Sequence record: KP869105
DNA: 64,000 nucleotides
Source: Escherichia coli O157 typing phage 7
Direction: 5' to 3' (one strand)
Position 1 is the first letter of the stretch; every line of letters starts with the position of its first letter. The position numbers were made by a program, and so were the translations under genes. Positions 1,898-63,989 of this stretch are shown in pieces. The notes beneath the pieces are model-generated. The model was given only the letters and a program-made list of their open reading frames with translations, was not told where the DNA came from and made no database searches.

Positions 1898-2556
1898 TGA
1901 GTTTACTTAATAATAAAGCGGGAGTTATTTCCCGCTTAGCAGATTTTCTTGGTTTTAGAACTAAGAAAAATGATATTTCGGTTATGAATAATCAGCCAGT
2001 AGGTGCTGTAACAATTTCACAAATAGCAAAAGGTTTTTATGACCCAAATGTAGAATCTGCTATTAATGATGTTAGAAATATGGCAGAGCAACAGGTTGGA
2101 GCTGTATTAGTTAATATAAGCGGCGTATCTCCTACTGGAGTGCAACAAACAGACTACTGGTCATTTGAAGGAACTGTCAATGATACTTCAGCCAAACCGG
2201 GTGACACAGTTATTGTTAACATGTTTGGTATTCCAGTTAAAGCTACTAATGGAATGACTTCAATCGAATTTACCAGTGCCGTTAGAACAGCTCTACAGGA
2301 AATGGTTGCAAAATTTATTGCAATTGATTCATTTGAAGACCATCCTACCATAGGAAATAAAATACAAGTTAAGTATTTAGATAACCAAGAACATATCTTA
2401 GAACAATACTCTGATAAAGGAATTACTTTCAAACAAGAAATAATTTCTCCTTCTAAACCTGGATACGGAACTTGGCAATTATTAGGTGCGCAAACTGTCA
2501 CGCTAGATAGTCACACACAACCTACGGTATTTTATTATTTTGAGAGAATAGCATGA
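1897..2556 (+). CDS. 11: baseplate wedge subunit and tail pin gp11
   Basis: Track ORF trimmed to the ATG at 1897 (MSLLNNKAG...), giving 219 aa as in T4 gp11; overlaps gp10 stop (TAATG). Confidence 0.9.
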
Positions 2557-4103
2557 GTAACAATACATATCAGCACGTATCAAATGAATCAAAATACGTT
2601 AAATTCGATCCTGCAGGATCGAATTTTCCTGACACTGTCACGACAGTGCAGTCTGCATTATCAAAAATAAGTAATATCGGCGTAAATGGTATTCCTGATG
2701 CAACTATGGAAGTTAAAGGAATAGCAATGATTGCGTCAGAGCAAGAGGTTTTAGATGGAACTAATAATTCTAAAATCGTTACACCAGCTACATTAGCAAC
2801 AAGATTATTGTATCCAAATGCTACTGAAACTAAGTATGGTTTAACGCGCTATTCAACAAATGAAGAAACATTAGAAGGCTCAGATAATAATTCATCAATA
2901 ACGCCGCAAAAACTGAAATACCATACTGACGATGTGTTCCAAAATAGATATTCGTCTGAGTCATCAAACGGGGTTATTAAAATATCATCTACACCTGCAG
3001 CTTTAGCTGGAGTAGATGATACTACGGCAATGACTCCGCTAAAAACACAAAAACTTGCAATAAAATTAATTTCGCAAATAGCTCCTTCAGAAGACACAGC
3101 ATCAGAATCTGTTAGAGGCGTAGTTCAGTTATCAACTGTCGCTCAAACTCGTCAAGGAACTCTTCGCGAAGGATATGCAATTTCCCCGTATACCTTTATG
3201 AATTCTGTTGCAACACAAGAATATAAGGGTGTTATACGTTTAGGAACGCAATCGGAAATTAACAGTAATTTGGGAGATGTTGCTGTAACAGGTGAAACAT
3301 TAAATGGTCGAGGAGCTACCGGTTCTATGCGTGGGGTAGTAAAATTAACGACGCAAGCCGGTATTGCCCCTGAAGGTGATAGCTCTGGAGCATTAGCATG
3401 GAACGCAGATGTAATTAATACTCGCGGTGGACAAACTATTAATGGTTCTTTAAATTTAGATCATTTAACAGCAAATGGAATTTGGTCACGCGGCGGAATG
3501 TGGAAAAATGGCGATCAACCTGTTGCCACTGAAAGATATGCGTCCGAAAGGGTTCCAGTTGGAACTATTATGATGTTTGCTGGAGATTCAGCTCCTCCTG
3601 GTTGGATTATGTGCCATGGTGGAACTGTGTCAGGAGATCAATATCCTGATTATAGAAACACAGTTGGAACGAGATTTGGTGGCGATTGGAATAATCCTGG
3701 CATTCCTGATATGCGAGGTCTTTTCGTCAGAGGAGCTGGTACTGGTGGTCATATTTTAAATCAACGAGGGCAAGATGGTTACGGGAAGGATAGACTTGGT
3801 GTAGGATGTGACGGAATGCATGTTGGCGGTGTTCAAGCACAACAGATGTCATACCATAAACATGCTGGCGGTTGGGGAGAATACCAAAGACATGAAGCTC
3901 CATTTGGCGCGTCCGTTTATCAAGGATATCTTGGAACTAGAAAATATGCCGACTGGGATAATGCTTCATACTTCACTAATGATGGATTTGAATTAGGTGG
4001 ACCGAGAGATGCCCTTGGTACACTTAATCGTGAAGGATTAATTGGTTATGAAACTAGACCATGGAATATATCATTAAACTATATTATTAAAATTCATTAC
4101 TAA
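2553..4103 (+). CDS. 12: short tail fiber protein gp12
   Basis: 516 aa; ATGA overlap with gp11; N-terminus [29 protein letters not shown] as recalled for T4 gp12; follows gp11 and precedes wac. Confidence 0.9.
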
Positions 4104-23626: not shown

Positions 23627-25138
23627 ATGACTGACATTAAAGTACATTTTTATGATTTTAGTCACGTGAGAATTGATTGTGAAGAAAGTACATTTCATGA
23701 ACTCCGTGATTTCTTTAGCTTCGAAGCTGATGGGTATCGTTTTAATCCGAAATACAAATATGGCCACTGGGATGGACGAATCCGTCTTTTAGATTATAAT
23801 CGTCTTCTTCCATTCGGCTTAGTCGGGCAAATTAAAAAGTTCTGTGATAACTTTGGCTATAAAGCCTGGATTGACCCACAAATTAACGAAAAAGAAGAAT
23901 TATCAAGAAAAGATTTTGATGAATGGCTTTCTAAATTAGAAATCTATTCAGGAAATAAAAGAATTGAACCACACTGGTATCAAAAAGATGCAGTGTTCGA
24001 AGGATTAGTTAATCGTCGTAGAATTCTTAATCTTCCAACATCCGCTGGTAAATCTTTAATTCAGGCTCTGCTCGCTCGGTATTATTTGGAAAATTACGAA
24101 GGTAAAATTCTTATCATTGTTCCAACAACTGCTCTAACAACTCAGATGGCTGATGACTTCGTTGACTATCGTTTATTCAGTCATGCAATGATAAAGAAAA
24201 TTGGTGGCGGAGCATCAAAAGATGATAAATATAAAAATGATGCACCAGTCGTTGTTGGTACATGGCAAACTGTAGTTAAACAACCAAAAGAATGGTTCTC
24301 ACAGTTTGGAATGATGATGAATGATGAATGTCATCTTGCTACAGGAAAAAGTATTTCATCTATCATATCAGGTTTAAATAACTGCATGTTCAAATTTGGT
24401 CTATCTGGTTCATTACGTGATGGCAAAGCCAATATCATGCAGTATGTTGGAATGTTTGGTGAAATATTTAAGCCAGTAACGACTTCTAAGTTAATGGAAG
24501 ATGGACAAGTAACTGAGCTAAAAATTAATAGTATTTTTCTTCGCTATCCCGATGAGTTCACTACTAAATTAAAGGGAAAAACTTATCAAGAAGAAATAAA
24601 AATTATTACGGGGCTTAGTAAAAGAAATAAATGGATCGCTAAATTAGCTATTAAGCTTGCGCAAAAAGATGAAAACGCTTTTGTCATGTTTAAACATGTA
24701 TCACATGGTAAAGCTATTTTCGATTTAATTAAAAATGAATACGATAAAGTTTATTACGTATCAGGGGAAGTTGATACCGAAACCCGCAATATAATGAAAA
24801 CCTTAGCTGAAAATGGTAAAGGAATAATTATAGTAGCTAGTTATGGTGTATTTTCTACTGGTATTTCAGTTAAAAATCTGCATCACGTTGTTTTAGCGCA
24901 CGGTGTTAAATCAAAAATCATTGTATTACAAACAATCGGTCGTGTATTACGTAAGCATGGTTCTAAGACAATAGCAACAGTCTGGGACCTCATAGATGAT
25001 TGTGGTGTTAAGCCAAAATCTGCTAATACGAAAAAGAAATATGTTCATTTGAACTATCTTTTAAAACACGGCATTGATCGTATTCAGCGCTACGCAGATG
25101 AAAAATTTAATTACGTAATGAAAACAGTTAATTTATAA
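23627..25138 (+). CDS. uvsW: UvsW RNA-DNA and DNA-DNA helicase
   Basis: 503 aa; SF2 helicase motifs (Walker A-like PTSAGKS, DECH box); late promoter box 23590-23597. Confidence 0.9.
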   Translation: MTDIKVHFYDFSHVRIDCEESTFHELRDFFSFEADGYRFNPKYKYGHWDGRIRLLDYNRLLPFGLVGQIKKFCDNFGYKAWIDPQINEKEELSRKDFDEWLSKLEIYSGNKRIEPHWYQKDAVFEGLVNRRRILNLPTSAGKSLIQALLARYYLENYEGKILIIVPTTALTTQMADDFVDYRLFSHAMIKKIGGGASKDDKYKNDAPVVVGTWQTVVKQPKEWFSQFGMMMNDECHLATGKSISSIISGLNNCMFKFGLSGSLRDGKANIMQYVGMFGEIFKPVTTSKLMEDGQVTELKINSIFLRYPDEFTTKLKGKTYQEEIKIITGLSKRNKWIAKLAIKLAQKDENAFVMFKHVSHGKAIFDLIKNEYDKVYYVSGEVDTETRNIMKTLAENGKGIIIVASYGVFSTGISVKNLHHVVLAHGVKSKIIVLQTIGRVLRKHGSKTIATVWDLIDDCGVKPKSANTKKKYVHLNYLLKHGIDRIQRYADEKFNYVMKTVNL

Positions 25139-25163
25139 GGGCTTCGGCCCTTTGGAGAAAAAG

Positions 25164-25397
25164 ATGTTACTAGAATTTAAACAATTTCTTTATGAAGCTT
25201 CTATTGATGAATTTATGGGTAAAATTGCCTCTTGCCAAACGATAGAAGGTTTAGAAGAACTTGAAGCTTATTATAAGAAAAGAGTTAAAGAAACTGAATT
25301 AAAAGATACTGATGACATCTCTGTGAGAGATGCTTTGGCAGGAAAAAGAGCTGAATTAGAAGATTCAGACGATGATGAAGTAGAAGAAAGCTTTTAA
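25164..25397 (+). CDS. uvsW.1: UvsW.1 small protein
   Basis: Track ORF starts at TTG 25152; ATG at 25164 with GGAG 8 nt upstream gives 77 aa; directly after uvsW. Confidence 0.6.
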   Translation: MLLEFKQFLYEASIDEFMGKIASCQTIEGLEELEAYYKKRVKETELKDTDDISVRDALAGKRAELEDSDDDEVEESF

Positions 25398-25452
25398 ATT
25401 AAAAAAGGCCCAACCAAAAAGGAAGGGCCAAAACTATAGACTAAAGGTCACA

Positions 25453-25620
25453 CTATAGCAAAAGTTGTGTTTCATTTAATTGTTCTTCCGAACTTTCTGA
25501 AACTGGTAGTTCTTTAATGTAATTATAGCAAGGCCCAGGATGTACAGGACCTTTGTCTGTTTCAACAACCAATGCAGAATCGATTGGAGTTTTACAGACA
25601 ACACAAATCTTATCTGACAT
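25453..25620 (-). CDS. small Cys-containing protein (position of T4 uvsY.-2)
   Basis: 55 aa ORF not in the track (under 60 aa): MSDKICVVCKTPIDSALVVETDKGPVHPGPCYNYIKELPV...; late promoter box upstream at 25646-25653. Confidence 0.55.
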   Translation of the reverse strand: MSDKICVVCKTPIDSALVVETDKGPVHPGPCYNYIKELPVSESSEEQLNETQLLL

Positions 25621-25645
25621 GATTGTCTCCTCTGAATTATATATC

Positions 25646-25653
25646 TATTTATA
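25646..25653 (-). promoter_or_regulatory. T4 late promoter box on minus strand (small ORF below uvsY)
   Basis: Plus-strand TATTTATA, i.e. TATAAATA on the minus strand, about 25 nt upstream of the 55-aa ORF. Confidence 0.5.
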
Positions 25654-25743
25654 ACCCCATCTTAAAGCGCATTTCTTGTACAAGCTTTAAACATGCTTCC
25701 ATTTCTGCTAAAAGTCTAAATACTTCTTTATAATTTGTCATAT

Positions 25744-25971
25744 TTACCCCATATCTCTCATATGCATATCAATGCCCATATCTTTAGAATAAAAATATTC
25801 ATCAAGATATCCGGCAAATTTTCCTTTAATATAAAGGACATCTTCACCACACGGGTGGTCGGCCAGGATACGAATATCCTGACGCTTAAGATTATGCTTT
25901 TTCATTAAGAATTGAATTTCCGTTTCAAATTCTTCTTCATAATTAAAAGCGTCATCAATGTTATATCTCAT
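25744..25971 (-). CDS. hypothetical protein (position of T4 uvsY.-1)
   Basis: 75 aa; start overlaps uvsY stop (ATGA-type coupling). Confidence 0.6.
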   Translation of the reverse strand: MRYNIDDAFNYEEEFETEIQFLMKKHNLKRQDIRILADHPCGEDVLYIKGKFAGYLDEYFYSKDMGIDMHMRDMG

Positions 25972-26384
25972 TATTTTCCAGCCTCAAATGCCCGCATGTC
26001 TTGAATATGCTTAATAGCAAATCCTCGTGATTTGATAGCATCAAGAGCTCCGCTACAGAAATCTAATAAAATTCCCCAATATTGTAATGAAGTATCAACC
26101 TTTAAAACATCCTTATCAGCTGATAGAACTGTTTTCATTTCTGATTTCTCGTAACGATCCATACTAAATTCATCACCATCTCCTCGTCCCGAGTAGTAGT
26201 CTAATTTAGCTTTAAGAGCAACTTTTTTCTGTGCTTCAATTCTAAGCATTTCCTTTTTAATACTTGAATGCTTATTAAGCCATTTACTATATAACATCAC
26301 ATTATTAGCTGCTTCATACTGTAATTTAGTCGAATCTATAAACACATCTTTCTTCAATTCTTCTTGAAGATCTTCTAATCTCAT
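25971..26384 (-). CDS. uvsY: UvsY recombination mediator
   Basis: 137 aa as in T4 UvsY; MotA-type middle promoter immediately upstream. Confidence 0.9.
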   Translation of the reverse strand: MRLEDLQEELKKDVFIDSTKLQYEAANNVMLYSKWLNKHSSIKKEMLRIEAQKKVALKAKLDYYSGRGDGDEFSMDRYEKSEMKTVLSADKDVLKVDTSLQYWGILLDFCSGALDAIKSRGFAIKHIQDMRAFEAGK

Positions 26385-26424
26385 ATTGTTCTCTATTCAA
26401 TTGTTATTGGATGGACTTAGATTC

Positions 26425-26450
26425 ATTATACCACGTTTATACGTGAAGCA
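26425..26450 (-). promoter_or_regulatory. MotA-dependent middle promoter for uvsY
   Basis: Minus strand reads TGCTTCA (Mot box), 13 nt, TATAAT, ending about 40 nt upstream of the uvsY ATG. Confidence 0.6.
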
Positions 26451-26849
26451 TTATACTCTATTACTGGAAGCCAGTTGTAGTTTTATCTGCTCAATATCAT
26501 CAGGGTTATCGATGACTGAAAAGCGTATTTCTACTATCAAAGTATAATCATCATAAACCGGTATTACATTAACTGCTAATTTATCAATACGTGGCTCATA
26601 GTTTCTTACTGCGCTTTCGATATTACGCTCAACCGTGTCAGCAGTAAGAGGAGTCATATTCTCAAAAAGTTGGTCAGATAAATCGCATCCAAATTCAGGG
26701 TCAAACGGTCTTGAACCTTTTCTTGTTGTAATAATTCCTAAAAGACTATTTTTAATTGACCTTAATCCAAGTGATCTTGAAACGTCTTTGTTCCAATCCA
26801 TTTTCATCTCTGGGTCAATATCAGAATAAAGCTTATTAATATTTGCCAT
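26451..26849 (-). CDS. 25: baseplate wedge protein gp25
   Basis: 132 aa as in T4 gp25; coupled to gp26. Confidence 0.9.
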   Translation of the reverse strand: MANINKLYSDIDPEMKMDWNKDVSRSLGLRSIKNSLLGIITTRKGSRPFDPEFGCDLSDQLFENMTPLTADTVERNIESAVRNYEPRIDKLAVNVIPVYDDYTLIVEIRFSVIDNPDDIEQIKLQLASSNRV

Positions 26850-27475
26850 TACAATAGCTCAAAGAATTCTTTGAGTCCTCTTATTACATGAGCGTGGGTT
26901 TTTCCACACTCTGGGCACTTAATTGGAACAGCCAAATAAACAGTAGGCTTTAAAAGCATATCTTTTATAGCTACAATATCTGACTCTGTGATGATAGAAT
27001 ATAAATCTTCCAATTCTTTTTCATTTAAGTCTTCAACTGGAATGCTTTCACCGTTAGCATGAATCGTTTCTATACATGATACTATCATGTGGGCTATATT
27101 TTTATCATCAAAAATTTTAGGGTAATGGAATTTAATTTTAATGTCACCCAGTGTATACCAGAGGTCTTCTGGTGCATCTATTTGTGTATGTAATAGATTT
27201 ATATGGGTTGGTATTTCAGTTCCACAGGTGCACTTCCAGGAGTTTTCGTGATTAACTTCTCCAAGAGAATGCGCCCATAAATGAATCAGTAATAGTTCTG
27301 ATTCTTGGCGGTTTAAATCTTTTGCATTTGTGCAGTCTTTGATTAGCTTTTTAACAATTACTTCTACGGAACCATTATTTTTGGCAGTAATAAGTTCTAG
27401 ATATTCTTTAAGAGTAAATGCGCGACAGTTGATTATTTTAGAACCAACTCTCACGTCAAATTTGTATTCATACAT
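26849..27475 (-). CDS. 26: baseplate hub protein gp26
   Basis: 208 aa as in T4 gp26; divergent from gene 51 with overlapping late promoter boxes. Confidence 0.85.
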
Positions 27476-27496
27476 ATTTAGCTCCTTTATTTATCA

Positions 27497-27504
27497 TATT
27501 TATA
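27497..27504 (-). promoter_or_regulatory. T4 late promoter box on minus strand (gene 26)
   Basis: Plus-strand TATTTATA; overlaps the plus-strand box for gene 51. Confidence 0.6.
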
Positions 27505-27508
27505 AATA
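27501..27508 (+). promoter_or_regulatory. T4 late promoter box (gene 51)
   Basis: Exact TATAAATA 18 nt upstream of the gene 51 ATG. Confidence 0.6.
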
Positions 27509-27525
27509 GAATAAAAGGAGCATCT

Positions 27526-28278
27526 ATGGCAAACATTATTCGTTGTAAATTACCTGATGGTGTTCATCGTTTTAAACCATTTACGGTAGAAGATTATCGA
27601 GATTTTTTGTTAGTTCGAAACGATATAGAACATCGGTCACCACAAGAACAAAAAGAAGTAATTGCTGATTTAATTGCTGATTATTTTGGAGACTATCCAA
27701 AGACTTGGCAACCATTTATATTTTTGCAGGTATTTGTAGGGTCAATAGGTAAAACTAAAGTACCAGTCACATTTGTATGTCCAAAATGTAAAAAAGAAAA
27801 GACAGTTCCATTTGAAATATATCAAAAAGAATTAAAGGAACCTATTTTTGATGTAGCTAATGTTAAAATTAAATTAAATTTTCCTTCTGAGTTTTATGAA
27901 AATAAAGCAAAGATGATTACTGAAAATATTCATTCTGTTCAAGTCGATGAAATGTGGTATGATTGGAAGGAAATTAGTGAATCAAGTCAAATAGAACTTG
28001 TTGACGCCATCGAGATAGAAACATTAGAAAAAATTCTCGATGCAATGAATCCTATTAATTTAACATTGCACATGTCGTGTTGTGATAAGTACATTAAAAA
28101 ATACACTGATATAGTAGATGTGTTTAAGCTATTAGTTAATCCAGATGAGATATTTACTTTTTATCAAATTAATCACACGCTTGTAAAAAGTAATTATAGC
28201 TTAAATTCAATAATGAAAATGATTCCTGCCGAGCGCGGATTCGTATTAAAACTGATTGAGAAGGATAAACATCAATGA
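27526..28278 (+). CDS. 51: baseplate hub assembly catalyst gp51
   Basis: 250 aa (T4 about 249); CxxC...CxxC cysteine pairs; late promoter box 27501-27508. Confidence 0.85.
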
Positions 28279-29447
28279 GTATGTTACAACGTCCTGGATA
28301 TCCAAATCTCAGCGTTAAATTATTTGAGAGTTATGACGCTTGGAGTAATAATAGATTTGTTGAATTAGCTGCTACTATTACCACATTAACTATGCGTGAC
28401 TCTCTTTATGGTCGAAATGAAGGAATGCTACAATTTTATGATTCTAAAAACATTCATACAAAAATGGATGGAAATGAAATAATTCAGATTTCTGTAGCTA
28501 ATGCAAACGATATTAATAATGTTAAAACCCGAATTTATGGATGCAAGCATTTTTCCGTGTCAGTAGATTCAAAAGGCGATAACATCATTGCTATTGAATT
28601 AGGAACTATTCATTCTATAGAAAATCTTAAATTTGGTAGACCATTTTTCCCTGATGCCGGTGAATCTATAAAGGAAATGCTTGGCGTAATTTATCAAGAT
28701 CGTACATTATTAACTCCAGCGATAAATGCTATTAATGCTTATGTTCCTGATATTCCATGGACTAGCACATTTGAAAACTATTTGTCATATGTAAGAGAAG
28801 TTGCTCTAGCGGTAGGAAGCGATAAGTTCGTATTTGTATGGCAAGACATCATGGGAGTTAACATGATGGACTATGATATGATGATAAATCAAGAACCATA
28901 TCCAATGATTGTAGGTGAGCCAACTTTAATAGGTCAATTCGTCCAAGAATTGAAATATCCATTAGCATATGATTTTGTTTGGTTGACTAAATCAAACCCG
29001 CATAAACGCGATCCAATGAAAAATGCTACTATCTATGCTCATTCATTTTTAGATTCTTCATTACCAATGATTACTACAGGAAAGGGTGAAAACTCTATTG
29101 TAGTGTCAAGGTCAGGTGCTTATTCTGAAATGACTTATAGAAATGGATATGAAGAAGCTATTCGTCTTCAGACTATGGCGCAGTATGATGGTTACGCTAA
29201 ATGTTCTACTGTCGGTAATTTTAACTTGACTCCTGGCGTTAAAATTATTTTTAATGATAGTAAAAACCAATTTAAAACAGAATTTTACGTTGATGAAGTT
29301 ATTCACGAATTATCAAATAATAATTCCGTAACTCATCTTTATATGTTCACTAATGCAACGAAACTGGAAACAATCGACCCAGTTAAGGTTAAAAATGAAT
29401 TTAAAACTGATACTACCACTGAAGAAAGTAGTTCTTCCGATAAGTAA
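28275..29447 (+). CDS. 27: baseplate hub protein gp27
   Basis: 390 aa (T4 about 391); ATGA overlap with gp51. Confidence 0.9.
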
Positions 29448-29928
29448 TAAAGAGGTTTCTATTCCTAAGATGGGTCTTAAACATTATAACATTTTAAAAG
29501 ATGTTAAAGGTCCTGATGAAAATTTAAAGCTTCTTATTGATTCTATTTGTCCAAATTTATCACCGGCAGAAGTTGATTTCGTTTCTATTCATTTGCTAGA
29601 ATTTAATGGAAAGATTAAATCTCGTAAAGAAATAGATGGTTATACTTATGATATTAATGACGTTTATGTATGCCAAAGATTGGAATTTCAATACCAAGGA
29701 AATACATTTTATTTTAGACCTCCTGGAAAATTTGAACAATTTTTAACTGTAAGCGATATGTTATCCAAATGCTTGCTTAAGGTCAATGATGAAGTTAAAG
29801 AAATTAATTTTCTTGAGATGCCAGCATTTGTTTTAAAATGGGCAAATGATATTTCTACAACTTTAGCAATTCCTGGCCCTAATGGTCCAATAACCGGAAT
29901 TGGCAATATTATTGGATTATTTGAATGA
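29395..29928 (+). CDS. 28: baseplate hub distal protein gp28
   Basis: Track ORF trimmed to the ATG at 29395, giving 177 aa (T4 gp28 length as recalled); overlaps the 3' end of gene 27 in another frame. Confidence 0.7.
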
Positions 29929-31697
29929 AAAAGCCACAAGAAATGCAAACGATGCGTAGAAAAGTTATTTCAGATAATAAACCAACACAGGAAGCGGCTA
30001 AATCCGCTTCTAATACTTTATCTGGTCTTAATGACATTTCTACAAAATTAGATGATGCTCAAGCTGCTTCTGAATTAATAGCTCAGACTGTTGAAGAAAA
30101 ATCAAATGAAATAGTTGGAGCAATTGATAACGTTGAAAGCGCAGTAAGTGATACTACTGCCGGTTCTGAGTTAATTGCTGAAACTGTTGAAATTGGAAAC
30201 AATATTAATAAAGAAATCGGTGAATCGCTCGGAAGCAAATTAGATAAATTAACAAGTTTACTGGAACAAAAAATTCAGACAGCTGGAATTCAGCAAACTG
30301 GAACGAGTTTAGCAGTAGTCGAAAATGCTATTCCTGTTAAAGTCGTCGAGGATGATACAGCTGAATCTGTGGGTCCTTTATTACCGGCTCCTGAAGCAGT
30401 TAATAATGATCCTGATGCTGATTTTTTCCCTACTCCTCAGCCAATTGAACCAAAACAAGAGTCTCCAGAAGAGAAGCAAAAAAGAGACGCATTTAACTTA
30501 AAATTATCTCAAGCTTTAGATAAATTAACAAAGACAGTTGATTTCGGATTTAAGAAATCTATTTCAATTACTGATAAAATATCTAGTATGCTATTTAAGT
30601 ATACCGTCAGTGCTGCTATTGAAGCTGCTAAAATGGTTGCATTGATAATGGCTGTTGTTATTGGAATAGACCTGCTGATGGTTCATTTTAAATACTGGTC
30701 AGATAAATTTTCAAAAGCCTGGGATTTATTTAGCACTGATTTTACTAAATTCTCTAGCGAAACCGGAACATGGGGTCCTTTATTACAGAGCATCTTTGAT
30801 TCTATTGATGAAATTAAAAAGTTCTGGGAAGCTGGAGATTGGGGCGGATTAACAGTAGCTATTATTGAAGGGCTTGGAAGTGTTCTTTATAATTTAGGAG
30901 AGCTTATTCAATTAGGTATGGCTAAATTATCTGCAGCAATTCTTCGAGTCATTCCTGGCATGAAGGATACTGCTGATGAAGTAGAAGGAAGAGCATTAGA
31001 AAATTTCCAAAATTCTACTGGAGCATCTCTTAATAAAGAAGACCAAGAAAAAGTAGCAAATTATCAAGATAAACGAATGAATGATGATCTTGGCCCAATA
31101 GCAAAAGGATTAGACAAAATTGCGAACTGGAAAACTCGTGCATCTAACTGGATTCGTGGTGTAGATAATAAAGAAGCATTGACTACTGACGAAGAACGTG
31201 CAGCAGAAGAAGAAAAATTAAAACAACTTTCACCGGAAGAAAGAAAAAATGCTTTAATGAAAGCTAATGAAGCTCGTGCTGCGATGATTCGTTTTGAAAA
31301 ATACGCTGATTCAGCTGATATGAGCAAAGACTCGACAGTTAAATCAATTGAAGCTGCTCATGAAGACCTTAAAAAACGAATGAATGATCCGGATTTAAAT
31401 AATTCACCAGCAGTTAAAAAAGAACTTGCTTCTAGATTTGCTAAAATTGATGCCACTTATCAAGAGCTCAAGAAAAATCAACCTGAAGCAAAACCTGAAA
31501 CTTCTGCTAAATCACCAGAAGCAAAACAGGTCCAGGTGATTGAAAAGAACAAAGCACAACAAGCTCCTGTTCAACAAGCATCTCCTTCAATCAATAATAC
31601 TAATAATGTTATTAAGAAAAATACTGTCGTTCATAATATGACACCTGTCACAAGCACAACTGCTCCTGGTGTATTTGGTGCGACGGGAGTTAATTAA
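29925..31697 (+). CDS. 29: baseplate hub protein and tail length determinant gp29
   Basis: 590 aa as in T4 gp29; ATGA overlap with gp28. Confidence 0.9.
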   Translation: MKKPQEMQTMRRKVISDNKPTQEAAKSASNTLSGLNDISTKLDDAQAASELIAQTVEEKSNEIVGAIDNVESAVSDTTAGSELIAETVEIGNNINKEIGESLGSKLDKLTSLLEQKIQTAGIQQTGTSLAVVENAIPVKVVEDDTAESVGPLLPAPEAVNNDPDADFFPTPQPIEPKQESPEEKQKRDAFNLKLSQALDKLTKTVDFGFKKSISITDKISSMLFKYTVSAAIEAAKMVALIMAVVIGIDLLMVHFKYWSDKFSKAWDLFSTDFTKFSSETGTWGPLLQSIFDSIDEIKKFWEAGDWGGLTVAIIEGLGSVLYNLGELIQLGMAKLSAAILRVIPGMKDTADEVEGRALENFQNSTGASLNKEDQEKVANYQDKRMNDDLGPIAKGLDKIANWKTRASNWIRGVDNKEALTTDEERAAEEEKLKQLSPEERKNALMKANEARAAMIRFEKYADSADMSKDSTVKSIEAAHEDLKKRMNDPDLNNSPAVKKELASRFAKIDATYQELKKNQPEAKPETSAKSPEAKQVQVIEKNKAQQAPVQQASPSINNTNNVIKKNTVVHNMTPVTSTTAPGVFGATGVN

Positions 31698-55137: not shown

Positions 55138-55998
55138 TTACACCGCCATCTTTCCTTTAATAGGAGGATGTGATTCATAGTTGTTAAGAACAAAATTATG
55201 AGGCTTTGCAAATTGACTCAACCAAAATACCTGCGATTCTGTGTCCCATTCATCAAATTCATCTGGAAATTTTAATTGTAATTCGCATAAATCCATAGGT
55301 TCACGACATAAAATTTCTTTACATTGTTCTACGTGATTCATATAGATATGAGTATTACCACCAGAAAATATCAAATCTCCCGGAATAAGATTACACATCT
55401 TAGCTACAATATGAACTAACGTAGCATATGATGCAATATTAAATGGAAGACCGAGGAAAACATCTACCGAACGTTGATACCACTGAAGGTCAAGGTATCC
55501 ATTACGCACATTAAACTGATAGAACATATGACAAGGCGGTAATGCCATATATTTAAGTTCAGCTGGATTCCACGCAGAAACAATTTGACGCCTATCATTT
55601 GGCAGTTTTTTAATACGATCAATAACTTCTATAATTTGATCTACACCGCCAAAATCACGCCACTGTTTTCCATAAATTGGACCAAGTTCACCGCTATGGT
55701 ATCCTAAATCTTTTGCTTGATTTTCGTAATTTTCATCCCAGACTGTTTTGCCTTGAATTAATGAATCATGTTGAATTAATCGCAAATCATTGACATTTGT
55801 GCTTCCTGATAAAAACCATATTAGCTCAGCAATGCATGCATTCCAGGCGAGCTTTTTAGTTGTTACTGCAGGAAAACCTTTGGTTAAATCCCAACGCAAT
55901 TTAGTACCGAACAAAGCAATTGTTCCTGTGCCCGTTCGGTCATCGGTTTCATAGCCATTTTCAAAAATGTCTTTAATTAAATCTTGGTATTGTTTCAT
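55138..55998 (-). CDS. td: thymidylate synthase, uninterrupted
   Basis: 286 aa continuous ORF; TS active-site region [11 protein letters not shown]; no intron. Confidence 0.95.
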
Positions 55999-56043
55999 TT
56001 AGTACCTTATATAAATTATAATACATTTTATGAAGCTAAATAA

Positions 56044-56391
56044 TCAATACGGTTTAGCATCAAATTTTCTCTCAATTTCAGGCGTGAAATATAATTCTTT
56101 ACCGCGTTTGGAAAAGCGACCAATAATATGATAATTATTCTCATCAAACGTGATATTACCAATATCCATAGCTTTCAACCAAATATCGATATTTCTATCC
56201 AGCTTTATGTCAAAATTCCAATACGGAGAACTATTACCGAAAATACTACAAGCGGATTCAGTGAAACAACTGCTATAAATCTTGTCTTTAGGAACTACTA
56301 ATTGATAGACACCTTTAATAAACTGAGGACCCTGCCACTTTGGCTGTTTCTCATCTTTTTCTAATAGAATAGGGTAATAATTAAAATTCAT
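56044..56391 (-). CDS. hypothetical protein inserted between frd and td
   Basis: 115 aa ATG-initiated ORF with no recognisable motif; occupies a site where T4 frd and td overlap. Confidence 0.5.
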   Translation of the reverse strand: MNFNYYPILLEKDEKQPKWQGPQFIKGVYQLVVPKDKIYSSCFTESACSIFGNSSPYWNFDIKLDRNIDIWLKAMDIGNITFDENNYHIIGRFSKRGKELYFTPEIERKFDAKPY

Positions 56392-56410
56392 ATTTCCGCC
56401 GCGCGTTATT

Positions 56411-57369
<959 letters not shown>

Positions 57370-57422
57370 TTTTTAAAGCATTGCATAATAGAATTCATCA
57401 TTCATAAACTCAAATACAAAAA

Positions 57423-57782
57423 TTATATTATCTCCCATCGAAAAGGGTCAGGAGCATATCCGATAGAGTTAATCATTTTAACTAAAGTTACCATTCCTTT
57501 GTTAACTGCTTGTGCGATTTCATCAAAAACTTCATCGCTATCATCATAAAGGTCATTAAAAAGTTCTAACACGTTCTTCTGAACTTTTAATTTATGACCA
57601 ACAATCTCGCCTACAGTAAATTCGTTTCCGCCGATTCCAGTGTAAAACGTAATTACACCAGTTAACAGACTTTCGCGAGAATCTAGGTCATGTGATAAAT
57701 TAATATAAGCCATCCCGGGTGCAGTTTTAAGTTGGCAACGAATTCTTACTTGGGTAATTCCGGTTACATGAATGTCGGACAT
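57423..57782 (-). CDS. hypothetical protein
   Basis: Track ORF trimmed to ATG at 57782 (MSDIHVTGITQV...), preceded by GAGGAAA; 119 aa. Confidence 0.5.
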   Translation of the reverse strand: MSDIHVTGITQVRIRCQLKTAPGMAYINLSHDLDSRESLLTGVITFYTGIGGNEFTVGEIVGHKLKVQKNVLELFNDLYDDSDEVFDEIAQAVNKGMVTLVKMINSIGYAPDPFRWEII

Positions 57783-57792
57783 ATTATTTTCC

Positions 57793-58032
57793 TCACGCTT
57801 TCTTAGCGACTTTCCAGTCAGCTTTAAATTGGTCAACGTCAGAGTGATGAATCCAGAAACCAGATGAGCTACCATCTTCATAAAGAGGACAACCATCACA
57901 CTCATCTTCCCATCCCATATCACGTAAAAGATGTTCAGCTTTTTCAATGAGTTCAGAATCTTTACCGATGATATTAAAATACCATTTACCTCTAACTTCT
58001 GAATCTTTGATGCTCTGGCGTTGTAATCTCAT
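57793..58032 (-). CDS. hypothetical protein
   Basis: Track ORF trimmed to ATG at 58032 (MRLQRQSIKD...), preceded by GAGGAG; 79 aa; early promoter/stem-loop upstream. Confidence 0.5.
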   Translation of the reverse strand: MRLQRQSIKDSEVRGKWYFNIIGKDSELIEKAEHLLRDMGWEDECDGCPLYEDGSSSGFWIHHSDVDQFKADWKVAKKA

Positions 58033-58053
58033 TTTATTCTCCTCAAGTTGATA

Positions 58054-58088
58054 GGGTAATAGTATCACACTACTACCCTGTTGTAAAC
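58054..58088 (-). promoter_or_regulatory. T4-type early promoter with stem-loop
   Basis: Minus strand: GTTTAC, 17 nt, ATACTA; imperfect inverted repeat GGGTAGTAG/CTATTACCC. Confidence 0.45.
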
Positions 58089-58090
58089 AA

Positions 58091-58351
58091 TTATTTTTGA
58101 ATTTTATCGAGCCACTTACCAAGCTTAATCATTTCTTTAGTAGCCTTTTCCATACTTCTGAACTTAACCAATAGAGGATAGGTATCGACACCCATAACTA
58201 AACTGGTTACAAGACTGTGTTCACCCACAAGCCATAACGAATACGTTTGAATATCGAGTCCGTAATTTCTGTCTTTATGGACCCGTACACCCATCACTTC
58301 AAATTTCTCACTAGCTTTTTCTACCGCATCCAGGAAATCATCTTTAGTCAT
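58091..58351 (-). CDS. hypothetical protein
   Basis: Track ORF trimmed to ATG at 58351 (MTKDDFLDAVEK...), 86 aa. Confidence 0.45.
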   Translation of the reverse strand: MTKDDFLDAVEKASEKFEVMGVRVHKDRNYGLDIQTYSLWLVGEHSLVTSLVMGVDTYPLLVKFRSMEKATKEMIKLGKWLDKIQK

Positions 58352-58352
58352 A

Positions 58353-58739
58353 TTAGGCCTTAAAAGTTTTTCGCAAAAGTTCAATGATTTCATCTACATT
58401 GTTTTCGTCAACAATGCAGTGAATTTTTGTTACGCCAGAAACTATACCTTCATTAGCGGATTGAGGCTTTTCTAAAGTTACCTCAGTAAAGTATTTGAAT
58501 TCTTCAGAGTAAATCTCAAAATACGTCTCAAGTGGGCCACCCGCCATGTATTCAGTGCCGTCTTCCATAGTTACACGTACCACACAGTCACCAGCACAAT
58601 CATCACTTTCCATTTCATCTACAACAAAACTAGGTCCGTGCTTCTCTATTAAATTTAGCATCATTACATTGCAACGGCACTCGTTAGCAAAGTCATTTTT
58701 AAATAAAGGGTTAATGATATAAGTTTTTCCAACTTCCAC
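58353..58739 (-). CDS. hypothetical protein, GTG start
   Basis: 128 aa; GTG start with GAGGAAA 7 nt upstream. Confidence 0.5.
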   Translation of the reverse strand: MEVGKTYIINPLFKNDFANECRCNVMMLNLIEKHGPSFVVDEMESDDCAGDCVVRVTMEDGTEYMAGGPLETYFEIYSEEFKYFTEVTLEKPQSANEGIVSGVTKIHCIVDENNVDEIIELLRKTFKA

Positions 58740-58785
58740 TTTGATTTCCTCATTTTAACGGGGCTATCAAATAGCCCCTTGATAA

Positions 58786-59016
58786 TTATTGTTCAATCAG
58801 TCCCATGTAAAATTCTGCGTCTTCAGAATCCATGCCATCGCAATATTCATTAGCCATAAAGCGGGTAAGGTCTTCAAGAGGACCTTCAATGACAATAGAA
58901 AAATTGCAATAATTGGGATCATCATGAATACTTGTGATACTAAGTTCAGGATAACGATTACGAATAATCTCTTCAATATATTCAAAATCAACGATGTCAA
59001 TATCAACTTTAGCCAT
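58786..59016 (-). CDS. hypothetical protein
   Basis: Track ORF trimmed to ATG at 59016 ([13 protein letters not shown]...), preceded by AAGAGGAAA; 76 aa. Confidence 0.5.
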
Positions 59017-59108
59017 ATTATTTTCCTCTTTAATCATCAGCAGTATTGCCGATAGTTGTATAGTACCATGGAAGGACAAGGATGTAAACAGTTTTGTGAA
59101 AAAATTTT

Positions 59109-59139
59109 TGAAAATAAAAAAGGGGACCTCTAGGGTCCC
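59109..59139 (-). terminator. intrinsic terminator after gene 32
   Basis: GGGGACC-CTCTA-GGGTCCCC hairpin with TTTTTTATTTT on the minus strand. Confidence 0.65.
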
Positions 59140-59163
59140 CAATTAATTAGTAATTATAATCTA

Positions 59164-60072
59164 TTAAAGGTCATTCAAAAGGTCATCCAGGTCCGTGTCA
59201 TCAGCACTAGATGAACTACCAGAGCTTGAGCTCATAAAATCATCTTCAGTTTTTGTATTGAAGTCATCAACATTGAATGCATCCAAATCATCAGCAACTT
59301 TATCAGCTTTCTTAGCAGCAGTTGCAGCGGCACCGCCCATCACAGCAGTTCCCATAACTTGACCGAATTTAGTATTCAGTTCTTCAAACGATTTGAATTT
59401 ATCTTTAGAAGTCATTTCAGAAAGGTCAACCATTTGTTCGAACAGTTCTTTCTGGAAAGATTCATCGTCAATGTTTGGAATCGCAGATTGATTCAGGAAT
59501 TTAGATTCGTCGTAGTTACTAAAACCAGAAACTTGTTTAACTTTCAGTACAAAGTTAGCACCTTCCCACGGACAAGTTACATCAACCGGAGTTTCACCCA
59601 TTTCAACATCAACTGCAATCATTGCATTGATTTTATCCCAGATTTTCTTACCGAAACGGTATTTAAATACTTTACCTTCATTTTCTGGAGCAGCTGGGTC
59701 TTTTACTACAAGAATGTTAGCCCAGTAAGAAGTTTTACGTTTAACAAGACCGTACTCTTTATTGTCAGTGTTGTATAAATCATTTTTACTGATGTATTGA
59801 CATACTGGGCAAGAATCGTAATCACCGTGGGTAGATGAACAGTTTTCAATATACCATTTACCATTTTTCTTGAAACCGTGATTTACAAGAATTGCGAATG
59901 GTGCTTGTTCATCATTTTTAGACGGAAGAAAACGAATTACTGCTTGACCGTTACCCGCATTGTCGAGTTTCAGTTTCCACTCGCCTTTATCTTCAGAAGA
60001 AAAACCACCTTTATTTCCAGCCAGTTTAGCCATTTGTGCAGCGAGTTCAGCAGTAGATTTACGTTTAAACAT
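59164..60072 (-). CDS. 32: single-stranded DNA-binding protein gp32
   Basis: 302 aa; N-terminus [17 protein letters not shown] and acidic Ser/Asp-rich C-terminus as in T4 gp32; leader with pseudoknot-forming repeats. Confidence 0.95.
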
Positions 60073-60140
60073 TTTTATTTCCTTTTTAATTTAATTAACA
60101 GTTGGTGCTATGACGATGTATGACCTCATAGCTGGTCAGT
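60073..60140 (-). promoter_or_regulatory. gene 32 mRNA leader with pseudoknot-forming inverted repeats (autoregulatory operator)
   Basis: Interleaved stems 60107-60113 with 60126-60132 (GCTATGA/TCATAGC) and 60121-60125 with 60134-60138 (TGACC/GGTCA), 35-66 nt upstream of the gene 32 start, then an AT-rich tract. Confidence 0.55.
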
Positions 60141-60165
60141 GAGATAATTATAATCTATTTATAAT

Positions 60166-60173
60166 AAGCAATT
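60166..60173 (-). promoter_or_regulatory. T4 late promoter box on minus strand (gene 32)
   Basis: Plus-strand TATTTATA overlapping the gene 59 stop. Confidence 0.5.
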
Positions 60174-60825
60174 AATACTTGCAAGATTTCACAGTTTCAA
60201 TGAAAACATTTTTAGCTTTCTGTGAATCAATATTTAAAATTTTTCTATAAGCCTTTAACTTTATAGAATAATTATTCCAGACTAAATTATCAGTCTGTTC
60301 ATCATGTTTATCAATTATATTTAAAAATGAATCAAGCAAGATAAACGTTTCAAACGAAATTATGTTCGACTGAAGCAGTTTAAAAATATAACTTGATTGA
60401 ACCTTTGGATTATATTCAAAGATTTCTTTAAAAGCAGAAACTTCAACTTTTTTACTAAAATAATAAATGTTGCGAATATCTTCTTCAAACTTAAATTTAA
60501 TTTGCTTTAAGCGTCCGATATATTCACGATAAAACACAAGTGCATCAGCGTCAGAGATGTCACCAATCCAAGCATCTTGGTTAGCAACCAAATTGCTTAT
60601 AAAGATTAAAGCAAGTTCCTTTAATTTATATTTTTCTGATAACTTCTGGAAAAAATACTTATCCCTTCGCTTTTGATAAGCGGCATCAGACACCCGCATG
60701 CACCAATTATACTTAATAACATCATACTTTCCATTCATATGTTGTTTTATCATTAAGTATAATTTATAAACTGATTTACCATCAATGTATCTTTCACCAC
60801 CAGCAGGCATGCGGAGTTTAATCAT
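60172..60825 (-). CDS. 59: gp59 helicase loader
   Basis: 217 aa as in T4 gp59; between 33 and 32. Confidence 0.9.
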   Translation of the reverse strand: MIKLRMPAGGERYIDGKSVYKLYLMIKQHMNGKYDVIKYNWCMRVSDAAYQKRRDKYFFQKLSEKYKLKELALIFISNLVANQDAWIGDISDADALVFYREYIGRLKQIKFKFEEDIRNIYYFSKKVEVSAFKEIFEYNPKVQSSYIFKLLQSNIISFETFILLDSFLNIIDKHDEQTDNLVWNNYSIKLKAYRKILNIDSQKAKNVFIETVKSCKY

Positions 60826-61160
60826 AGTAGAAAATCTAATGTATTAGTTTTTTCACAACGAACAACAGAAGGACGTAAAAGATTTTCGTCAATAGCTTCT
60901 GACTGAATTTTTTCAATTATACCCGAAGGAATAAATTTAGCAAATTGAGTTTCAGGAATAGAATTTTCTTCCAAGAATGCTGTCGTAGCTTCAAGATAAC
61001 TCATTCCAAACTCTTCTACCATTTTTTCAATAATAAATCCATTTTCTTGGCGGTCAAGAAGCTTTGCAATTTCATCCTTTTCTTTCTTAATTGAAAGTTC
61101 TTTTTCTGAAAGCCCGGCCTCATCGACCGGGCGAATATCATTTAGAGAAAACTGTGTCAT
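60822..61160 (-). CDS. 33: gp33 late transcription co-activator
   Basis: Track ORF trimmed to MTQFSLNDIRPV..., about 112 aa; ATGA-coupled to gene 59. Confidence 0.85.
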   Translation of the reverse strand: MTQFSLNDIRPVDEAGLSEKELSIKKEKDEIAKLLDRQENGFIIEKMVEEFGMSYLEATTAFLEENSIPETQFAKFIPSGIIEKIQSEAIDENLLRPSVVRCEKTNTLDFLL

Positions 61161-61407
61161 AAAGTTCAACTACCTCTTCAGTTTCAGCTTCAAACACATC
61201 ACGGTTATCTTTATGATATAGAGCCAAAAGACGATTAAACATCTTGCCATCAACACCAAGTTCATCTTTGGCACGAATTCGAATATCTTTAATCAATTCA
61301 TTATAACCGGAAATTTTCAGTTTATGATCAGATGCTTCTTTAATAAATTTAGCCAAGTCTTCGCCGTGGATAGCTTCATCAAATTCAACCATTTCTTTTT
61401 TAGCCAT
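61138..61407 (-). CDS. dsbA: DsbA double-stranded DNA-binding protein
   Basis: 89 aa as in T4 DsbA; between rnh and 33. Confidence 0.8.
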   Translation of the reverse strand: MAKKEMVEFDEAIHGEDLAKFIKEASDHKLKISGYNELIKDIRIRAKDELGVDGKMFNRLLALYHKDNRDVFEAETEEVVELYDTVFSK

Positions 61408-61415
61408 TATTCACC

Positions 61416-62333
61416 TCAAAATTCATTAATGCTATTAGTTAATTTAGAAAGACCCGCTTTTACAAAATATGAATAAATTTTGCCACGCGGTGGTAATTTA
61501 TATGAATTATAGTAATTCACAATGTTTGAAGCAATATTATCAGGAATATAATCAAAATCAATTAGAACTAAATTTTCTTTATAACGATTATATTCAGATT
61601 CTGTTAGAAGCACCTTAGCTTGCTCACGGTCATTAGCAATAGCTTCAACGATTGAAGTTTTCATTGAAGGGGTTCGTTCACCTTCAACTTTGGTAAACCA
61701 AAAGTCAGATCGTACTTTAACTGAAGCAACGTTATCCTTTTTGTCGCCTTTAAGGATTTTAGTCATACAGTCAATTTCAGCAGAACCGCTTTTAATTTTA
61801 ACCCATTTCTTGTGCATCGGTGACCATTGCTTAACATTTGGATATTTGTGAAGTTGAGTAAAGTCACCATCAGATGAAATGATTAAAATCTTGTGTCCTT
61901 CTAAAGAGAACTTTTTAACAAGAACAGCAATGTGGTCATCTGCTTCATACTTATCGATATCCATAACAATGTATGGCATATAAGCTTTCAATTCATCTAT
62001 AACTTTATGACTGGATTCAAAATAACCTTCCCAGTCCCAAGTAGATTCTTCTCGTGCTTTTCCACGGTTTTTCTTATAATAATACGCGAAATCACGACGC
62101 CAATATCCAGATTTCGCATTATCAATACACAGTACAATTTTAGTGTATCCAAGAGTTTTTGCTTTTTTGACATTAAACTTAATTGAGTTCAATATCAAAT
62201 GACGAACCATTGATAAATTAATTTTTTCTTTATCTGGAAAGTTTACCAAAGCAGTTGAAAGCGCAATTTGACTAAAGTCAATAAAGCAAATTCCTTCTTT
62301 GTAATCTTCATCCAGCATCATTTCTAAATCCAT
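61416..62333 (-). CDS. rnh: RNase H (5'-3' exonuclease, FEN-1 family)
   Basis: Track ORF trimmed to ATG at 62333 (MDLEMMLDEDYKEG...) giving 305 aa as in T4 RNase H. Confidence 0.9.
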   Translation of the reverse strand: MDLEMMLDEDYKEGICFIDFSQIALSTALVNFPDKEKINLSMVRHLILNSIKFNVKKAKTLGYTKIVLCIDNAKSGYWRRDFAYYYKKNRGKAREESTWDWEGYFESSHKVIDELKAYMPYIVMDIDKYEADDHIAVLVKKFSLEGHKILIISSDGDFTQLHKYPNVKQWSPMHKKWVKIKSGSAEIDCMTKILKGDKKDNVASVKVRSDFWFTKVEGERTPSMKTSIVEAIANDREQAKVLLTESEYNRYKENLVLIDFDYIPDNIASNIVNYYNSYKLPPRGKIYSYFVKAGLSKLTNSINEF

Positions 62334-62395
62334 ATGAACCTCGTTCAATTAGTGAGATTTCTATTATATACCATCCAAATCTTAAAGTAAACAAG

Positions 62396-62403
62396 TATAA
62401 ATA
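62396..62403 (+). promoter_or_regulatory. T4 late promoter box (gene 34)
   Basis: Exact TATAAATA about 35 nt upstream of the gene 34 ATG. Confidence 0.65.
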
Positions 62404-62437
62404 CTTATTATTGAAAACACAATAGGAGCCCGGGAGA

Positions 62438-62851
62438 ATGGCCGAGATTAAAAGAAAGTTCAGAGCAGAAGACGGTCTGGACGCAGGTGGTGATAAAATA
62501 ATCAACGTAGCTTTAGCTGATCGTACCGTAGGAACTGACGGTGTAAACGTTGATTACTTAATTCAAGAAAACACAGTTCAACAATATGATCCAACTCGTG
62601 GATATTTAAAAGATTTTGTAATCATTTATGATAACCGCTTTTGGGCTGCTATAAATGATATTCCAAAACCAGCAGGAGCTTTTAATAGCGTACGATGGAG
62701 AGCGTTACACACTGATGCAAACTGGACAACTGTTTCGTCAGGACCCTATCAATTAAAATCAGGCGAATCGATTTCAGTTAACACCGCAGCGGGTAATGAC
62801 ATTACATTTACTTTGCCATCTTCTCCAATTGATGGTGATACTATCGTTCTC
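62438..62851 (+). CDS. 34: long tail fiber proximal subunit gp34, N-terminal part (sequence then breaks into gapped fragments)
   Basis: MAEIKRKFRAEDGLDAGGDKIINVALADRTVGTDGVNVDYLIQ... N-terminus; late promoter box 62396-62403; continues in 63168-63404 after collapsing duplicates. Confidence 0.8.
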
Positions 62852-62861
62852 NNNNNNNNNN
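62852..62861. other. assembly gap (10 N)
   Basis: Run of n in the sequence. Confidence 0.95.
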
Positions 62862-63004
62862 GCACTGATGCAAACTGGACAACTGTTTCGTCAGGACCCT
62901 ATCAATTAAAATCAGGCGAATCGATTTCAGTTAACACCGCAGCGGGTAATGACATTACATTTACTTTGCCATCTTCTCCAATTGATGGTGATACTATCGT
63001 TCTC
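62862..63004 (+). other. redundant copy of gene 34 sequence 62709-62851 (unmerged overlapping fragment)
   Basis: Identical to the preceding about 143 nt except the first base; bounded by N runs. Confidence 0.85.
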
Positions 63005-63014
63005 NNNNNNNNNN
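63005..63014. other. assembly gap (10 N)
   Basis: Run of n. Confidence 0.95.
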
Positions 63015-63157
63015 ACGAATCGATTTCAGTTAACACCGCAGCGGGTAATGACATTACATTTACTTTGCCATCTTCTCCAATTGATGGTGATACTATCGTT
63101 CTCCAAGATATTGGAGGAAAACCTGGAGTTAACCAGGTTTTAATTACAGCTCCGGTA
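63015..63157 (+). other. overlapping gene 34 fragment (repeats 62764-62851, then extends 55 nt)
   Basis: Sequence identity with the earlier fragment, then new in-frame gp34 sequence QDIGGKPGVNQVLITAPV. Confidence 0.85.
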
Positions 63158-63167
63158 NNNNNNNNNN
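63158..63167. other. assembly gap (10 N)
   Basis: Run of n. Confidence 0.95.
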
Positions 63168-63404
63168 CAAGATATTGGAGGAAAACCTGGAGTTAACCAG
63201 GTTTTAATTACAGCTCCGGTACAAAGCATTGTAAACTTTAGAGGTCAACAAGTACGCTCAGTACTAATGACTCATCCAAAATCACAGATAGTTTTAATTT
63301 TTAGTAATCGTCTGTGGCAAATGTATGTTGCTGATTATAGCAGAGAAGCGGCAGTTGTAACACCGGCAAGTCTTTATCAAGCGCAATCAAACGATTTTAT
63401 CGTG
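63168..63404 (+). CDS. 34: gp34 internal fragment (overlaps previous fragment by about 52 nt, then extends)
   Basis: Continues the gp34 reading frame: ...QSIVNFRGQQVRSVLMTHPKSQIVLIFSNRLWQMYVADYSREAAVVTPASLYQAQSNDFIV. Confidence 0.7.
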
Positions 63405-63504
63405 NNNNNNNNNNNNNNNNNNNNNNNNNNNNNNNNNNNNNNNNNNNNNNNNNNNNNNNNNNNNNNNNNNNNNNNNNNNNNNNNNNNNNNNNNNNNNNNN
63501 NNNN
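63405..63504. other. scaffold gap (100 N)
   Basis: Run of 100 n, the usual unknown-length gap placeholder. Confidence 0.95.
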
Positions 63505-63592
63505 AAACCAACATCGCTGTTAAAGCCAACTGGATTTAATGCTGCTTCGTCAAGCTGCTGATTCTGGTTTACTGGATTAAGGCCAAAGTAAC

Positions 63593-63943
63593 TCATTGCG
63601 GAATATCTCCGGAGAATCTCTGACGCTTCTGTGTCAGATCAAGAACAACGGGAGAACCATCATCTTTTAGCAGATAACCAGTACCAAGTTTCACCAGGTA
63701 CTGACTATCGCCGTAACTTTGCAAACCATACTGACCAGGCGGTGTTTTTATCCCTGTGCCAACAACTTGTTCATTCCAAGCCTGATTAACCTGCTTATCG
63801 AATTGCTCTGCAGACATTCCCCACGGCAAAAGAACATTCCCCATTCCGTTATAGTCATGCACGCCACCTGTAGCTACGTTAACAGCCTGTTTCCAGATAT
63901 CATTGTCAATTTCGCCTGATACCACGCCTTTTTTCGCCATCAC
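63593..63943 (-). CDS. unidentified protein on a higher-GC segment, probably not part of this phage locus
   Basis: 116 aa ORF (GTG then ATG start), ATGA-coupled to a downstream ORF running into the N gap; base composition visibly richer in G+C than the rest of the window. Confidence 0.3.
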   Translation of the reverse strand: MMAKKGVVSGEIDNDIWKQAVNVATGGVHDYNGMGNVLLPWGMSAEQFDKQVNQAWNEQVVGTGIKTPPGQYGLQSYGDSQYLVKLGTGYLLKDDGSPVVLDLTQKRQRFSGDIPQ

Positions 63944-63965
63944 ACCAGCGTAATAGTCCTTTGCG

Positions 63966-63989
63966 ATCTCGTATGCCGTCTTCTGCTTG
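63966..63989 (+). other. Illumina P7 adapter, reverse complement
   Basis: ATCTCGTATGCCGTCTTCTGCTTG is the exact reverse complement of CAAGCAGAAGACGGCATACGAGAT. Confidence 0.9.

Follow-up and report, generated by a model that had tools for sequence, protein, structure and literature searches.

Allelic bubbles left unmerged are known from short-read scaffolds assembled with Velvet, in which the variant paths are placed in series with short fixed spacers between them, the length of each fragment equals k and each fragment starts with its variant base. Such bubbles are usually discussed for heterozygous diploid genomes. A node of the Velvet graph is a run of overlapping k-mers labelled by their last nucleotides, bubbles in the graph stem from errors or SNPs, and scaffolding is carried out by Pebble and Rock Band (PMC3488206).

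The likely source project of the record analysed here is one in which 11 E. coli O157 typing phages were pooled and sequenced in one MiSeq run with 150-nt paired reads, then assembled using VelvetOptimiser with stated Velvet k-mer values of 90–120, giving 1–7 contigs per phage (PMC4429339). Two sibling deposits contain terminal direct repeats, of 290 nt in TP3 (KP869101.1; 1–290 / 168444–168733, mismatches at 145 and 146) and of 298 nt in TP6 (KP869104.1; 1–298 / 160273–160570, mismatches at 145 and 154), and in both the variant cluster is flanked on either side by exactly 144 nt without a mismatch. The two repeats have the signature of an unmerged bubble at the point where a circular assembly was opened. 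As a repeat of this kind consists of (k−1) + the variant span + (k−1), both correspond to k = 145.

The stretch of DNA that was analysed (the window) is 64,000 nt of the typing phage 7 record KP869105. Near its end the 5′ part of gene 34 is given as overlapping fragments with runs of 10 N between them (N10), and these apparent repeats are very probably the unmerged SNP-bubble paths of a Velvet graph with k = 143, printed serially. On this reading the locus resembles the Velvet scaffolds described above in its serial variant paths, its short fixed spacers, its k-long fragments and their variant first bases; it differs in that the source was a phage stock and in that k was unusually large (143 of 150 read bases) and outside the range stated in the paper. 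With KP869101 and KP869104 it would share the project, an unmerged variant bubble at high k and the resulting duplicated sequence. In those records, however, the duplications are at the record ends and lack N spacers, whereas here they lie within a scaffold, with N10 between them.

Gene 34 and its fragments

The window was compared with Escherichia phage wV7 (HM997020), a T4-like Tequatrovirus that is the earlier sequence of typing phage 7. Positions 1–62851 were colinear with wV7 85055–147905 at a constant offset, with one mismatch in total. Two 25-kb single-piece matches were perfect, there were 0 mismatches in 24951–30450, and the 7452 nt of 55400–62851 contained 1 mismatch, at 62709. This base, the lone mismatch to wV7 in 62.8 kb, is the first of the terminal 143 nt of the main contig. 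The window contains only four N runs, three of 10 nt (62852–62861, 63005–63014 and 63158–63167) and one of 100 nt (63405–63504). The features of the region, with nucleotide numbers of gene 34 taken from its first base, are:

62438..62851, + strand: piece A, the end of the main T4-like contig; gene 34 nt 1–414 by mapping to wV7
62709–62851, + strand: final 143 nt of piece A, the probable A272 branch of a SNP bubble
62709, + strand: variant base A at gene 34 nt 272, codon 91 CGC to CAC (R91H); G in wV7 and all relatives
62852..62861, no strand: N10 spacer, read as a minimum-length scaffold gap
62862..63004, + strand: fragment B, 143 nt (the proposed k); gene 34 nt 272–414, the probable sister branch with the reference G272
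63005..63014, no strand: N10 spacer
63015..63157, + strand: fragment C, 143 nt (the proposed k); gene 34 nt 326–468, the probable branch of a second SNP, first base A
63158..63167, no strand: N10 spacer
63168..63404, + strand: fragment D, 237 nt; gene 34 nt 415–651, probably nodes downstream of the bubbles
63405..63504, no strand: N100 spacer between unrelated scaffolds
63505..63977, + strand: stray contig of a phiV10-type podophage; matches phiV10 at 100% identity and has no relation to the T4-like genome
63966..64000, + strand: end of the Illumina P7 adapter, ATCTCGTATGCCGTCTTCTGCTTG (63966–63989), followed by poly-A

Fragment B and 62709–62851 are the same 143 nt except for the first base (G versus A), which agrees with the repeat described in an earlier note on this DNA. 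The first 89 nt of fragment C repeat the end of B, again with a mismatch at the first base alone (A versus G), and its remaining 54 nt are new. Fragment D shares 54 nt with C, without a mismatch. The staggered overlaps proposed in that note were therefore present, with sizes of 89, 54 and 54 nt in place of about 88, 55 and 52, and its statement that each new fragment differs only in the first base held for B and C and failed for D, which has no mismatch. Other than the overlaps among A, B, C and D, no exact repeat of at least 40 nt was detected in the whole 64-kb window, so a chance origin of the overlaps is excluded.

Gene 34, the ORF beginning at 62438, encodes gp34, the proximal subunit of the long tail fibre. 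After the overlaps were collapsed, the merged pieces gave 651 nt in frame (217 codons) without a stop, of which 650/651 were identical to nt 1–651 of wV7 gene 34; B and D were each 100% identical to wV7. The product matched phrog_972, "tail fiber protein proximal subunit" (E = 1.4e-103), with residues 1–217 on profile positions 1–216. Both the assignment to gene 34 and the proposal that the collapsed fragments form one continuous in-frame gp34 sequence were thus confirmed by the merge, the profile match and the wV7 alignment. The upstream ORFs are T4-type genes 32, 59, 33, dsbA and rnh in an order identical to that of wV7, and gene 34 starts downstream of rnh, as it does in wV7. The scaffold ends at nt 651, before genes 35–37, so that the window holds codons 1–217 of 1289 and gene 34 nt 652–3870 are missing from it. 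The incomplete ORF reflects the assembly, not the phage.

The listed ORF 62438–63196, of 252 aa with X residues, is artificial, as had been claimed from the letters. Fragments B and C stay in frame because 143 + 10 = 153 = 3 × 51, and the +1 shift of D makes the ORF terminate at 63196, shortly past the third N run. An exact look-up of the 252-aa X-containing product in the protein collection returned no match.

Fragment boundaries and a probable de Bruijn graph with k = 143

The main contig A and fragment B share the same end base (gene 34 nt 414), and the start of D (nt 415) adjoins the end of A with zero gap and zero overlap. B and C are equal in length (143 nt), and each begins at a base where two versions of the sequence differ; in gene 34 coordinates, 272 + 143 = 415, the start of D. 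A SNP at position p lies in exactly k k-mers, so the label of its branch runs from p to p+k−1 and the next node starts at p+k. For k = 143 the predicted boundaries are 272–414, 326–468 and a downstream node from 415, which are those observed.

For simulation, a de Bruijn graph was constructed from the wV7 sequence and the observed variants, with nodes spelled by the final bases of their k-mers, at odd k from 31 to 149. The simulated haplotypes at nt 272/326 were GG, AG and either AA or GA. At k = 143 two nodes were identical to B and C, nodes 415–468 and 469–651 concatenated to D, and nodes 272–325 and 326–414 gave the tail of A. B and C were reproduced at k = 143 and at no other k in the tested range.

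The following course of events would produce the deposited arrangement. The DNA pool would have contained three or more sequence versions at the start of gene 34, differing at nt 272 (G/A) and nt 326 (G/A), and each single-base difference would have given a bubble with k k-mers in both branches. With Velvet nodes labelled by the last base of each k-mer, a branch would be printed as 143 bases from the variant base. The bubbles would have been left unmerged, the paired-end scaffolder would have set the alternative branches in series, and for estimated gaps that were zero or negative the minimum spacer of 10 N would have been inserted. The order printed would be the A272 main path to nt 414, N10, the G272 branch (272–414), N10, the A326 branch (326–468), N10 and 415–651. 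The scaffold would have stopped at nt 651, after which the depositor would have added an unrelated junk contig via N100.

Velvet writes scaffold gaps of less than 10 nt as 10 N and appends scaffolded nodes as bare labels. Its default bubble merging is limited to branches of 100 nt, which would explain the survival of 143-nt bubbles. In a literature search for the 10-N minimum gap and the default bubble-length limit of Velvet, only the existence of the parameter was found. SPAdes, whose artificial gap is likewise 10 N, was rejected as the assembler: it prints edges in full with the variant mid-edge, and its k is capped at 127. We infer that the assembler was almost certainly Velvet, and likewise why the bubbles were not merged and what the N10 spacer represents.

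Deposits KP869101 and KP869104 and the window show signatures of k = 143–145, values at odds with the 90–120 given in the project paper (PMC4429339). The k = 145 signature of the siblings indicates that assemblies of the project were run at k in the 140s with variant bubbles left unmerged, and this removes the main objection to k = 143, which was the k range of the paper. The TP8 deposit (KP869106.1) has one N10 run in the whole record, without flanking overlap, and so provides no estimate of k. That run stands between the main contig and an unrelated junk contig, so the N10 runs of the window could in principle be the depositor's spacers and not the assembler's.

The depositor may accordingly have concatenated separate small redundant contigs with N10, with no scaffolding by the assembler, an explanation that fits the join in TP8 and the report of 1–7 contigs per phage (PMC4429339). 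We consider it improbable, as stand-alone de Bruijn contigs carry a prefix of k−1 and would overlap their neighbours by k−1, whereas the zero overlap of A and D and the variant starts of B and C fit node labels within one scaffold. The use of N100 for the unrelated join also suggests that the two spacer lengths had different origins. Even if true, concatenation by the depositor would amount to another form of this artefact, with the same bubbles underlying it.

The 143-nt pieces could alternatively be single trimmed reads or read-sized mini-contigs, each with an error at its first base, that were placed unmerged by a scaffolder or a reference-guided pipeline; the earlier note had called them read-like. 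B and C are short, equal in length, close to the read length of 150 nt and different from the overlapping sequence at the first base only. However, the deviant base at nt 272 sits inside the long contig (62709) and the first base of B is that of wV7, so at least this variant is covered by assembled sequence and is no error at the start of a read. Reads would give neither the end that A and B share at nt 414 nor a start of D at the next base, 415, and the signatures in the sibling deposits are k-mer-sized (144 + 144), not read-sized. With pieces of 143 nt versus reads of 150 nt and boundaries of this kind, the read-like description was not upheld, and an origin from reads is unlikely.

Relatives contain the region once. 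The 2005 nt of 61400–63404 correspond to 1689 nt of wV7, which is 2005 − 30 N − 143 − 89 − 54, and the 805-nt query 62600–63404 covered 488–489 nt, equal to one copy, in 40/40 listed relatives, wV7 included. The repeat was sought in six IMG/VR relatives and none was seen in them. A biological tandem repeat is thus not what was found: the copies are linked by N runs alone and the relatives are single-copy. A real tandem duplication in the 5′ part of gene 34, with a period of about 153 nt and unresolved by the assembler, has nothing in its favour beyond the appearance of the sequence and a period that keeps the frame for two copies, and is effectively excluded by the N-run joins, by staggered overlaps in place of repeat units, by boundaries set by k-mer arithmetic, by the single copy in the 40 relatives and by that in wV7, an independently determined genome identical over 62.8 kb. 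The repeat feature is an ordinary draft-assembly artefact and not biological, which upholds the earlier proposal of assembly or scaffolding artefacts, and the true sequence is a single copy that is identical to wV7 gene 34 apart from possible variants.

Variants at nucleotides 272 and 326

In fragment C, the change G to A at nt 326 converts codon 109 from GGC to GAC (G109D). G was present at both nt 272 and nt 326 in 7/7 relatives examined (83–99.8% nt identity). The 61-mer containing A272 was carried at 100% by 0/76 matching phage records and the 61-mer containing A326 by 0/23, so both variants are private to this data set.

With k = 143, a 150-nt read provides 8 k-mers. A continuous path of 143 k-mers needs many variant reads, and the variants are therefore likelier to be subpopulations of the stock than random errors; from the same requirement, a substantial allele frequency is plausible. 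The G to A variants R91H and G109D may coexist in the phage stock. That they are real coexisting gp34 variants, perhaps joined by a third one at nt 652, has in our estimate slightly less than an even chance. The scaffold may have stopped at nt 651 because of a third variable site or a drop in coverage. The variant sites, including the possible one at nt 652, fall within 380 nt near the start of gene 34, and the preceding 62.7 kb equal wV7. If the variants are real, the reference stock of this typing phage would be heterogeneous, and its variation would cluster in the part of the long tail fibre nearest the baseplate. The gene 34 artefact is otherwise a matter of data hygiene only, its sole possible biology being this minor heterogeneity of the stock in the N-terminal part of gp34.

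Use of the record and the stray phiV10-like contig

The deposited sequence misrepresents gene 34, which appears with an artificial 252-aa ORF, duplicated segments and a truncated gene, and the record fuses a T4-like genome to an unrelated podophage fragment with Illumina adapter and poly-A attached. Repeat counting, variant calling in tail fibres and prediction of host range from this record would all be misled. Artefacts of this type can be recognised by a simple rule: the fragments are k long, each opens with its variant base, and the piece that follows begins k bases after the variant. Sibling deposits labelled "complete genome" have redundant ends of about 290 nt from the same cause.

Positions 63505–63977 were 100% identical to phiV10 and to nt 19–491 of KP869106.1 (typing phage 8, TP8), and 63966–63989 match the 3′-terminal 24 nt of the Illumina P7 adapter exactly. 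The phiV10-like DNA joins the adapter through a 12-nt microhomology; phiV10 has ATCTCGTATGCC in its own sequence. The same chimera of phiV10 and adapter is present, base for base, at the start of the TP8 deposit (KP869106.1 nt 480–502), where it is followed by N10. These findings suggest mispriming by the P7 oligonucleotide as the source of the chimera, and we speculate that index-less molecules from such mispriming leaked into several samples. The T4-like record is itself chimeric, and its podophage part would come from either an induced prophage or contamination within the pooled run.

The small ORF of the stray contig matched the TP8 deposit and many E. coli prophages, and no T4-like context was found for it. 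In five independent E. coli draft genomes, a contig end lay 0–2 nt from the start of the same 115-aa phiV10-like gene, which suggests a recurrent assembly breakpoint at this gene in phiV10-like prophages.
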